Assembly: GCA_045806525.1 (NCBI GenBank)
Contig: JBJMJD010000050.1
Span: forward strand, 21,177-85,176
Direction of reading: 5' to 3'
Source of the DNA: Gaiellales bacterium
Lineage (GTDB): Bacteria; Actinomycetota; Thermoleophilia; Gaiellales; JAICJC01
DNA length: 64,000 nucleotides
Shown here: piece by piece, positions 60,640-62,412 of the stretch
How positions within the stretch are numbered: the stretch's first letter is position 1
Layout of the letters: the number at the start of each line of letters is the position of its first letter
The notes under the pieces: generated by a model
Databases searched by the model: none
Seen by the model: only the letters and a program-made list of their open reading frames with translations
Told to the model about the DNA's origin: nothing
Program-made: the position numbers and the translations under genes

Positions 60640-62412
60640 CTACGCCAGTTCCAGCTCGAACAACGGCTGGCCGTACTCGACCGGCTCCGCGTTGCCGACC
60701 AGCACCGCGCGGATCACGCCCGCGTGCTCGGACTTGAGCTCGTTGAACAGCTTCATGGCCTCCAGCACGCACAGCACCTGATCGACGGCGACGGTGTCGC
60801 CCTCGCTGACGAACGGCTCAGCGGTCGGCGAGGGCGAGCGGTAGAACGTCCCGACCATCGGCGACGGCACCGTGACCGTCTGCGACACGCTCGGTGCGGC
60901 TGACTCCGCGGCGCCGTTGTCGGCTGACATGACGGCGGGGGCGGACGCGACGGGAGCAAGCGGCCGGTCGTCCTGGCGGCGGACCGTGATTCGCACGCCC
61001 GCGTCCTCGACGGTGAGCTCTCCGACGTCAGAGCCCTCGACCATCTCGATCAGCTCTCGGATGCGCTCGGACTGGCTGCGCTCGAGCCCGTCGCGCTCCG
61101 CATCCTCCCGATCCCCGCGGCCGCGCAGCGTGGCCAGCAGCCGGCTGGCGTCGTCGCCGAACAGCGCGACCAGCAGCAGATCCTCCTCGCTGGCGGCCAG
61201 CCCCTCGGCCCGCATCTGGTCGAGGTCGGGTGACGGATCGACGGTCGCGTCGGGGTCGGCGTGGACGGCCGCAGCCGGCGCGATCGCCTGGGGTGGATTG
61301 CCGTAGATCCCCGACAGGTAGTCGCGCATGTCAGGCGACACCTCGTCCCAGCGCCGGGCCGACAGCACATGGCGCACGGCCTGGCCGGCCAGGATGCCGC
61401 CCACCGGCTGGGCCAGCGGTGGCATCCCGCAGTCGAGGCGCACCTGCTTGAACTCCTCCAGCACCTCGTCCAGGCGGTCTCCGGCGCCCAGCATCCGCAG
61501 CCGCGCGTCCAGCTCGGAGACCAGGCCCACGGGCAGCCGGTTGAAGGCGGTGCGCAGCGTGATGCGGGGCGGGATCGGCAGCGCCGGCATCTGCGACGTG
61601 ACGTGCTCGTCGATGAATTGCGACGCCTCCCAGACGCGGTCGGCATCGACGCCGTGCTCAAGCCCCAGTCCGGTAAGCGAGTCGCACAGCACCTCCCCGG
61701 CGACCCGGTGCAGGGTGTAGGCGACCGGCAGCACGGCCGTGGCGATCGGCTCCGCGCCGTGGCGGGCGGCCTCGATCGCCATCGCCAACGCGTTTCCGCC
61801 GGTGCCCTGGCAGTAGAGGCCGACCGGAAGGCCGGACGCCTCCGCAAGCTCGTTGATGACGCGGTCGCACGTGCCCGGATCGAGCGCGCCGGCCGGGTCG
61901 TGCACCAGCACGTGGTCGGCGCCCAGCTCGGCCAGACGGCGCGCCTTGTCGACCACCCGCGGCAGGTTCGGCATGAAGCCGGAGAAGGCCAGGCCGGCGT
62001 ACAGGCGGCCGCCCGCCTCGCGCACGGCCGCGGCGGCCGACTCGAGGTTCTCCACGTCGTTCAGGGGGTCGTGCAGCCGGAAGATCTCGATGCCGCTCTC
62101 AGCCGCGCAGAGGATGAAGCGGCGCACAAGATCGTCGGACAGCGGCCGTGAGCCGACCAGGAAGCGCCCGCGCAGCGCCATCTGCAGCGGCGTCGTGCGG
62201 CAGCGCACTTTGACGCCGCGGATCCGCTCCCACGGGCTCTCGGTTCCCTTCTGGACGGCGGCATCGAAGCAGCCGCCGCCGCTCACCTCGAGTGCGGCGA
62301 AGCCGGCCTGATCGAGGATCTCGGCCACCTCCAGCACCCGCGCGGTCGAGATTGTGCCCACCAGGGGCTGCTGGGAGAGCAGGCGGATCGTGGTGTCGAC
62401 GATGCGGGTCAC
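60640..62412 (-). CDS. fusion protein: OadA/PycB/5S-type carboxyltransferase-like domain (ligand positions substituted) plus AccB-like biotin carboxyl carrier domain
   Basis: 590 aa. Residues 1 to about 450 align with the oxaloacetate decarboxylase alpha / pyruvate carboxylase B TIM barrel and its C-terminal helical region. The last ~80 aa are AccB-like ([13 protein letters not shown]...[11 protein letters not shown]). GTG overlaps the efp stop. Confidence 0.85.
   Translation of the reverse strand: [590 protein letters not shown]

Follow-up and report, generated by a model that had tools for sequence, protein, structure and literature searches.

The window analyzed here, a 64,000-nucleotide stretch of contig JBJMJD010000050.1 from a Gaiellales bacterium, a soil actinobacterium (assembly GCA_045806525.1), carries between efp and accC a gene, designated X, whose 590-aa product joins a carboxyltransferase (CT)-like region to a complete AccB-type biotin carboxyl carrier protein (BCCP). 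X is probably the AccB of Gaiellales, bearing an N-terminal pseudo-CT that would have been kept for a non-catalytic role. The components are of known kinds; it is their combination, above all the conserved pseudo-CT, that is new.

Analysis of X using Pfam indicated an HMGL-like domain at residues 3-267 (34 bits, barely over the cutoff), a PYC_OADA domain at 292-434 and a Biotin_lipoyl domain at 514-587 (E 3e-21). When phmmer was run against the PDB, the N-terminal region aligned with PycB (5ks8_C; X 5-427, E 7e-63), OadA (2nx9; X 6-378, E 1e-54) and transcarboxylase 5S (1rqb; X 26-389, E 1e-43), the surroundings of the metal-binding motifs being gap-free in each case. An AlphaFold2 (AF2) model built from a 71-sequence alignment has a mean predicted local distance difference test (pLDDT) score of 85.2, with the barrel mostly above 90. 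In Foldseek, the first ~450 residues of the model match 2nx9 with a template modeling (TM) score of 0.83-0.84 and a root-mean-square deviation (rmsd) of 3.4 Å, and 1rqb with a TM score of 0.80, the rmsd range being 3.2-3.5 Å; the match to PycB has an E of 2e-39. Because the motif alignments are gap-free and the AF2 model superposes on the known structures, the fold is intact and the register of the alignment is beyond doubt.

Within this fold, the metal site of the PycB/OadA/5S enzymes is gone. The R-D-x-H-Q-S motif (DVVLRDGHQS in 5ks8_C, DVVLRDAHQS in 2nx9) reads R-L-L-S-Q-Q in X, with L11 at the position of the Asp ligand and S13 at that of the RDxH His; the carbamyl-Lys motif (I/L)-K-D-M-A reads V-H-D-P-A, with H171 in place of the Lys (LVHDPAGAL vs AIKDMASLL and ALKDMAGIL); and the His-x-His pair, H-(A/C)-H in the counterparts IHLHAHATSG and LHLHCHSTAG, reads Y-C-Q, with Y200 and Q202 replacing the two His. 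The initial annotation, made from the letters alone, had called residues 1 to about 450 CT-like and had named exactly these exchanges (Asp to Leu11, His to Ser13, the carbamylated Lys to His171, and His to Tyr200 and Gln202); the extent agrees with Pfam, phmmer (5-427) and AF2/Foldseek, and each exchange was recovered in the phmmer alignments and a codon check. A misplaced motif register, which the initial annotation had named as a possible refutation, is ruled out, as the hidden Markov model- and structure-guided comparison with 5S, OadA and PycB kept all four replacements.

The catalytic loop is altered as well, P-G-G-x-x-(T/S)-N reading PVGLVSE in X. Its Thr/Ser position, residue 299, whose role we take to be that of T882 in RePC and T908 in SaPC, is unconserved among the Gaiellales relatives (S54/A49/G16/T8). 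X scores 353.5 bits against the PycB model PRK09282, under the cutoff of 402, where ligand-intact relatives score 744-930; against TIGR01108 it reaches 306 bits (cutoff 756.5) and against the 5S model PRK12330 199 bits (cutoff 827). The N-terminal CT domain thus appears to be catalytically dead, a reading that is strengthened because the Thr/Ser position is unconserved and the PRK09282 score lies under its cutoff. No support was obtained for a replacement metal site from co-variation of H114, H171, Y200 and Q202; the variation at H114 is independent of that at H171, which gives no hint of a new His-based site.

The C-terminal part of X, by comparison, is an AccB in all its elements. Residues 449-587 align with residues 24-175 of E. 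coli AccB from the complex of biotin carboxylase (BC) with BCCP (4hr7_B, E 2e-23), matching the N-segment, the Pro/Ala-rich linker, the thumb (SPSPTAEP vs TPSPDAKA) and the EAMK motif, and X 450-588 passes the AccB equivalog TIGR00531 with 134.1 bits (cutoff 115.2) over model positions 5-155 of 156. The initial annotation had recognized only the last ~80 aa as AccB-like: the likeness holds, while its extent has to be enlarged to the span of the 4hr7_B and TIGR00531 matches. The biotinyl-Lys that it placed at about residue 554 is K554, invariant in the 130 sequences described below. In the family-wide alignment, the thumb and the N-segment occur in every CT::AccB-type protein, whereas OadA/PycB-type relatives (EAMKME...) have a 7-residue gap at the thumb and unrelated sequence at the N-segment. 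In E. coli, it is this N-terminal segment of AccB that binds AccC.

Conservation was assessed over a clade sample of 130 full-length Gaiellales members with 47-100% identity. A survey of orthologues had been proposed along with the initial annotation, and across these sequences the ligand loss is fixed or nearly so: position 11 is Leu in 129 and Ile in one, position 13 is Ser in 124 (Gly in three, Ala in three), position 171 is His in 122 (Asn in six, Leu in two), position 200 is Tyr in 129 and His in one, and position 202 is Gln in all 130. R10, Q14, R81, D115, D172 and K554 are invariant, and H114, new in this clade, is near-fixed. Mean pairwise identity among diverse members is 62% in the TIM barrel, 52% in PYC_OADA, 61% in the AccB N-segment, 28% in the linker and 66% in the biotinyl domain. 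The ratio of non-synonymous to synonymous substitution rates (dN/dS), computed against one locus (L001, 97% identical), is 0.018 for the TIM barrel (36 synonymous and 2 non-synonymous differences), 0.17 for PYC_OADA, 0.08 for both the biotinyl domain and X overall, 0.086 for accC and 0.017 for efp. Because dN/dS is very low, a maintained role is indicated for the dead domain, which on these grounds would be a pseudoenzyme with a retained function and not one in decay.

The same data bear on whether gene X is an artefact, arising from a chimeric assembly, from two genes joined by a frameshift or from pseudogene decay. Frameshifted copies of X do occur in related long-read (MFD) contigs of metagenome-assembled genomes (MAGs; L012, L013, L019, L024, L026), with accC also broken in L019 and L026, and these look like assembly indel errors and not pseudogenization. 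On the other side, independent JGI, ENA and NCBI assemblies supply over 120 full-length, near-collinear proteins, synteny is kept in at least 20 loci, dN/dS is low in both the barrel and the whole gene, and the AF2 model is confident. An assembly artefact was rejected on the many independent assemblies and the low dN/dS, and an artefact of any of these kinds is extremely improbable.

The genes surrounding X lie on a single strand in the order M24 peptidase (cut by the end of the window) - efp - X - accC - asp23 - nusB, as identified using Pfam, and their junctions overlap or nearly so: GTGA between efp and X, TAG, 7 nt and ATG between X and accC, and ATGA at both accC/asp23 and asp23/nusB (Table 1). 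X thus lies immediately upstream of accC and would be co-transcribed with it. The initial placement of X in the accB slot of an efp-X-accC-asp23-nusB block is thereby upheld, and the synteny of relatives agrees. JGI contigs carry a 100%-identical X protein, and a 1.1-Mb contig has one of 73% identity; on these the block is longer, running aroC-aroK/B-aroQ-pepP-efp-X-accC-asp23-nusB-(small ORF)-ispA-tlyA-nadK-recN-pyrG (ORF, open reading frame). The slot aroQ-pepP-efp-X-accC-asp23-nusB-...-recN-pyrG is, by comparison with the B. subtilis map, the Bacillus-type neighborhood of accB. The nearest named relatives are Gaiellales MAGs of the class Thermoleophilia (97-98% identity). The neighboring AccC passes the BC model of acetyl-CoA carboxylase (ACC), PRK08591, with 629 bits (cutoff 597), its best PDB matches are ACC biotin carboxylases, which rank above PycA-type subunits and 5ks8_A, and its 455 residues end in ...RGALPSLAEQVA directly after the BC C-domain. 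On the 1.1-Mb relative contig (L084:13300-14043), asp23 and nusB were called as one 247-aa product with both Pfam domains, which is either a real fusion or a read-through/frameshift of the long-read assembly.

Table 1. Gene X, its parts and the adjoining genes, in window coordinates
Feature	Position	Strand	Basis or remark
Gene X, 590-aa putative pseudo-carboxyltransferase::AccB fusion	60640..62412	(-)	GTG start overlaps efp stop; TAG stop
Residues 1-280, HMGL-like/DRE-TIM barrel of PycB/OadA/5S carboxyltransferase type, without metal site	61573..62412	(-)	Pfam, AF2, Foldseek
Residues 281-435, PYC_OADA helical domain; catalytic loop altered, position 299 variable	61108..61572	(-)	Pfam, alignment
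Codon L11 (CTG), site of metal-binding Asp (R-D motif)	62380..62382	(-)	Alignment, codon check
Codon H171 (CAC), site of carbamylated Lys (K-D-M-A-G)	61900..61902	(-)	Alignment, codon check
Codons Y200-C201-Q202, site of His-x-His ligands	61807..61815	(-)	Alignment, codon check
Residues 449-482, AccB N-terminal segment, homologous to AccC-binding E. coli AccB N-terminus	60967..61068	(-)	4hr7_B alignment
Residues 483-510, Pro/Ala-rich flexible linker, pLDDT <50, 28% mean identity	60883..60966	(-)	AF2, alignment
Residues 511-590, AccB-type biotinyl domain with thumb and EAMK	60643..60882	(-)	Pfam, 4hr7_B alignment
Thumb SPSPTAEP, residues 526-533	60814-60837	(-)	4hr7_B alignment
Biotinyl-Lys K554 in EAMK	60751-60753	(-)	Codon check
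efp	62409..62975	(-)	Pfam; stop codon overlaps X start (GTGA)
accC, ACC-type biotin carboxylase, 455 aa	59265..60632	(-)	Start 7 nt past X stop; without C-terminal Ala-rich helix
asp23-family gene	58948..59268	(-)	ATGA overlap with accC
nusB	58550..58951	(-)	ATGA overlap with asp23

In comparing X to characterized systems, E. coli AccB (TIGR00531; 4HR7 chain B, 1BDO) is alike to X ~449-588 from end to end, and its gene too lies directly upstream of accC; however, characterized AccBs are ~150-170 aa long and none carries the 435-residue N-terminal CT-fold domain of X. The best sequence and fold match of X 5-427 is PycB of the two-subunit pyruvate carboxylase (PC) of Methylobacillus flagellatus (5KS8; PMC5059739), which has the same order of CT, PYC_OADA and BCCP and is encoded beside a stand-alone BC. 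Unlike PycB, X has all four metal ligands replaced, a BCCP with an ACC-type thumb and a score under the PRK09282 cutoff. Bacterial two-subunit PCs are α2β4 assemblies in which a hydrophobic, Ala-rich helix at the end of α (~471 aa) serves as core of the BT-like domain, while β has a BT-like β-sheet domain with an HGE motif between CT and BCCP; both the helix and the BT-like domain are required for assembly (PMC5059739). In contrast, the AccC beside X has no such helix, and no BT-like domain or HGE region was found in X by phmmer, which aligns only 5-427 and 524-587 to 5ks8_C with the AccB N-segment and linker in between. A canonical two-subunit PC was rejected since three defining features failed, the missing helix and the lack of an alignable BT-like region among them. 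The OadA α subunit of the Na+-pumping oxaloacetate decarboxylase (V. cholerae, 2NX9) and 5S (P. shermanii, 1RQB) have the TIM-barrel and helical-domain fold in common with X, which differs from them in lacking the metal site and in the type of its BCCP. No oadB/oadG or 12S/1.3S genes were found among the neighbors or the Pfam-scanned large ORFs of the window, and a Na+-pumping OadA was rejected on the lack of oadB/G and the TIGR01108 score below cutoff.

Proteins of the same architecture occupy the same slot in other lineages. In Miltoncostaeaceae and other Thermoleophilia (L022, L023, L025, L026) the Asp is retained and the Lys and both His are gone, as are Q14, R81 and the PGG loop; Q at 202 is common to these proteins and the Gaiellales clade. 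P0159 (L085:8001-9842) has S/K/D/D at the ligand positions, the Lys being kept (K-T-A) and Asp-x-Asp standing in place of His-x-His, and is found in the slot aroQ-pepP-efp-X-accC-asp23-nusB-dxs-tlyA-nadK-recN-pyrG with pilMNO upstream. Its relatives P0158, P0161, P0168 (which has N-x-D) and P0189 form with it a separate CT::AccB clade, whose Asp-x-Asp could, judging from the residues, be an alternative metal site and not a dead one. Ligand-intact (D/K/H/H) fusions fill the slot in Eggerthellales (L015, efp-X-accC-nusB; L014) and Raoultibacter phocaeensis (L089), and are present in many other Coriobacteriia, including Paraeggerthella and Rubneribacter, as well as in Carboxydothermus hydrogenoformans Z-2901 (L090; CP000141, 1778100-1795953), where the gene comes after the spoIIIA operon and before accC-asp23-nusB-xseA/B. 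L089 and L090 come from cultured organisms whose genomes are complete or nearly so. Among the matches to the P0406 query, 104/119 have the full RD.HQ/KD/HxH set. These uncharacterized intact proteins of Coriobacteriia and Carboxydothermus share with X its domain order, AccB-type C-terminus and efp/spoIIIA-X-accC-asp23-nusB slot at 32-36% identity, and differ in keeping RDxHQ, KDMAG, HxH and the PGGM(S/T)N loop, with PycB-model scores in the range given above; they are probable orthologues of X and presumably catalytically competent. PF25984/PF25919 are listed for some homologues.

Degenerate members are also found beside genes of biotin and fatty-acid metabolism. L087 reads fabF-fabG-fabD-fabZ-fabF-birA-X-accC, and its X has lost the Arg, His and Lys; L088 reads fabZ-birA-bioY-X-accC, with His-x-His lost and the barrel no longer detected by Pfam; and in L091, accA-accD-fabF-fabG-fabD-fabZ and, on the opposite strand, bioY-X-accC are found within 13 kb. 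All tiers of CT::AccB proteins pass the AccB equivalog cutoff, and what is constant across the set is the complete AccB module and an adjacent AccC. Nearly all degenerate proteins in the sample have a carrier of the AccB type. In a neighbor-joining (NJ) tree of the CT region, the Thermoleophilia clades fall together with the S/K/D/D clade and the other degenerate clades lie scattered among intact ones, which suggests several independent degenerations of the ligand set, although this is a rough tree on long branches and the count of events is provisional. The CT chemistry appears, from these comparisons, to be dispensable and to have been lost repeatedly. A different setting is seen for a CT::AccB of a Bacillota MAG (P0150 in L086, GCA_013178275.1) in which only the carbamyl-Lys is changed (K to M): it is paired with accC, and its neighbors are genes for acyl-CoA dehydrogenase, enoyl-CoA hydratase, CoA-transferase and 2-hydroxyacyl-CoA dehydratase (HGD-D and activator), apparently a fermentative acyl-CoA context and not a housekeeping or fab one.

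Two functional alternatives were considered. One is that the pseudo-CT acts as a ligand sensor or a biotin-parking module, binding pyruvate, oxaloacetate or tethered (carboxy)biotin in the former active-site funnel and thereby gating the delivery of carboxybiotin to the true CT. The barrel is the most constrained part of X, and pocket-lining motifs (R10, Q14, R81, D115, D172, GG..F and FR.HDP.ND) are invariant in the 130 sequences despite the lost metal ligands; the Arg/Gln/Arg triad of R10, Q14 and R81 has a part in pyruvate binding in PC/5S structures. However, the sister clade (L022, L023, L025) has lost Q14, R81 and the PGG loop, yet the domain is kept in the same slot, and a role shared by both clades therefore cannot rest on those residues. 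A sensor or parking function is considered unlikely.

The other alternative, that X and AccC still work as a two-subunit enzyme, carboxylating or transcarboxylating pyruvate or some other 2-oxoacid at a remodeled site that is metal-independent or re-liganded, is less likely again and is regarded as quite improbable. It could draw on the strong purifying selection on the barrel, the retention of R10, Q14 and R81, the fixation of Y200 and Q202 themselves together with the new near-fixed H114, and the potentially metal-binding Asp-x-Asp of the P0159 clade. Nevertheless, metal use is to our knowledge common to every known member of this CT fold, and the Leu at the Asp position is unable to ligate one; the carbamyl-Lys position is H/N/L, with H114 and H171 varying independently as mentioned, and the catalytic Thr/Ser position is S/A/G/T. 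The Ala-rich helix missing from AccC and the BT-like region missing from X, both required in two-subunit PCs (PMC5059739), count against it too.

The preferred reading, that X is the Gaiellales AccB with a non-catalytic pseudo-CT, is taken because degenerate members located beside birA, bioY, fab and accA-accD tie the architecture to ACC. AccC would carboxylate X, and X would pass the CO2 to a CT encoded elsewhere, most likely of the AccA/AccD type, yielding malonyl-CoA for fatty-acid synthesis (FAS). The N-terminal 435 residues would go back to an ancestral fusion of accB with an active pyruvate-type CT of the PycB/OadA kind, a fusion that Coriobacteriia and Carboxydothermus still have with its ligands intact; in Thermoleophilia the domain would then have lost its metal site and catalytic loop and stayed under strong selection for a non-catalytic job. 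CT domains of the PycB/OadA/5S fold dimerize in 5S, OadA and PC, and AccB function needs an oligomeric BC-BCCP assembly formed through the AccB N-terminal region. A structural role seems the most economical for the pseudo-CT, the most likely job being that of an oligomerization or assembly scaffold for the BC-BCCP subcomplex; alternatively, it may be a site at which the tethered biotin domain docks or is regulated. That the CT is inactive is an inference from sequence, and its scaffold function and the part played by X in the ACC of Gaiellales are inferred as well. A conceptual parallel is offered by BADC of the plant plastid ACC, biotin-less BCCP paralogues which act as non-catalytic, inhibitory ACC subunits: in both cases a catalytically incompetent carboxylase component is kept within an ACC system, but in BADC it is the carrier that is dead, with no biotinyl-Lys, while in X the carrier is intact and the dead part would be a fused CT of a different substrate class.

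Three observations weigh against this reading. The ACC and FAS gene contexts come from lineages other than Gaiellales; no AccA/AccD or PccB-type CT, second BCCP or birA was found in the window by Pfam scans of its larger ORFs; and the invariance in the clade of R10, Q14 and R81, which are of substrate-binding type, along with most pocket-lining motifs, seemingly goes beyond what a pure scaffold would need.

Elsewhere in the window, a pyruvate phosphate dikinase (876 aa) is encoded with its kinase/pyrophosphorylase regulator (PDRP) directly upstream (34111-38018 (-)), a pair that bears on the node between phosphoenolpyruvate (PEP) and pyruvate in an organism with a dead PycB-like domain. At 28388-33063 (+), the gene for an imuB-like Y-family polymerase (IMS/IMS_C, weak) precedes that for a 1109-aa DnaE-type polymerase III α subunit in what looks like an imuB-dnaE2 mutagenesis cassette, to which the upstream ORFs at 26003-27175 (no Pfam match) and 27179-27760 may belong. 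An 864-aa protein (17968-20562 (-)) combines DHH, DHHA1, two CBS domains and a poly(A) polymerase/CCA-adding head domain, an unusual nucleotidyltransferase architecture, and an APH(6)-type aminoglycoside/hydroxyurea resistance kinase homologue lies at 14137-15018 (+) (PF04655, E 4e-39). The ORFs at 8175-9254 (+), 10434-11552 (+) and 26003-27175 (+), of 359-390 aa and without a Pfam match, have a comparatively low GC content at third codon positions (GC3) of 0.80-0.83 and may be either orphan genes or false calls that lie opposite real genes.

In itself the CT::AccB fusion is not unique, nor is it new to databases, where hundreds of such proteins are already deposited under names as varied as 'acetyl-CoA carboxylase biotin carboxyl carrier protein', 'oxaloacetate decarboxylase alpha subunit', 'acetyl-CoA carboxylase' and '2-oxoglutarate carboxylase large subunit'; even among close relatives of the intact proteins, PGAP names differ ('AccB', 'sodium-extruding OadA alpha', 'acetyl-CoA carboxylase'). 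Full-text literature searches found no paper describing either CT::AccB proteins encoded in the accB slot or the forms of them that lack the ligands: a Thermoleophilia marker paper mentions only an AccC indel, and neither a PPO-node review nor the paper by Lombard & Moreira treats the architecture. The initial annotation knew of no described role for a pseudo-CT::BCCP, and these searches, which found no characterization, bear this out.

Heteromeric bacterial ACC, an antibiotic target, is known from textbooks as a four-protein enzyme, and its AccB is viewed as a small stand-alone protein. With CT::AccB proteins spanning Thermoleophilia, Coriobacteriia (including human-gut Eggerthellaceae), Carboxydothermus and unnamed low-GC lineages, in catalytic states from intact to fully dead, the family offers a natural series for studying how a pseudoenzyme domain persists once its chemistry is lost. 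It can be suggested, tentatively, that CT::AccB is an unrecognized BC hub: in the intact form the AccC/BCCP pair would serve both a pyruvate-type CT in cis and AccA/AccD in trans, and by the time the pyruvate half died in several lineages, Thermoleophilia among them, the fold would have become an architectural or regulatory element indispensable to the ACC holoenzyme. If true, the cis CT would serve anaplerosis and AccA/AccD malonyl-CoA formation in Coriobacteriia and Carboxydothermus, and the conservation of a dead domain as tightly as EF-P would be explained. Should the genomes with intact forms (L089, L090) hold no other accB, a single BC/BCCP pair may serve pyruvate and acetyl-CoA carboxylation, and such sharing is a testable idea raised by these proteins. 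The systematic mis-annotation of the family, moreover, has an effect on how anaplerosis and Na+ pumping are reconstructed for these abundant bacteria of soil and gut.

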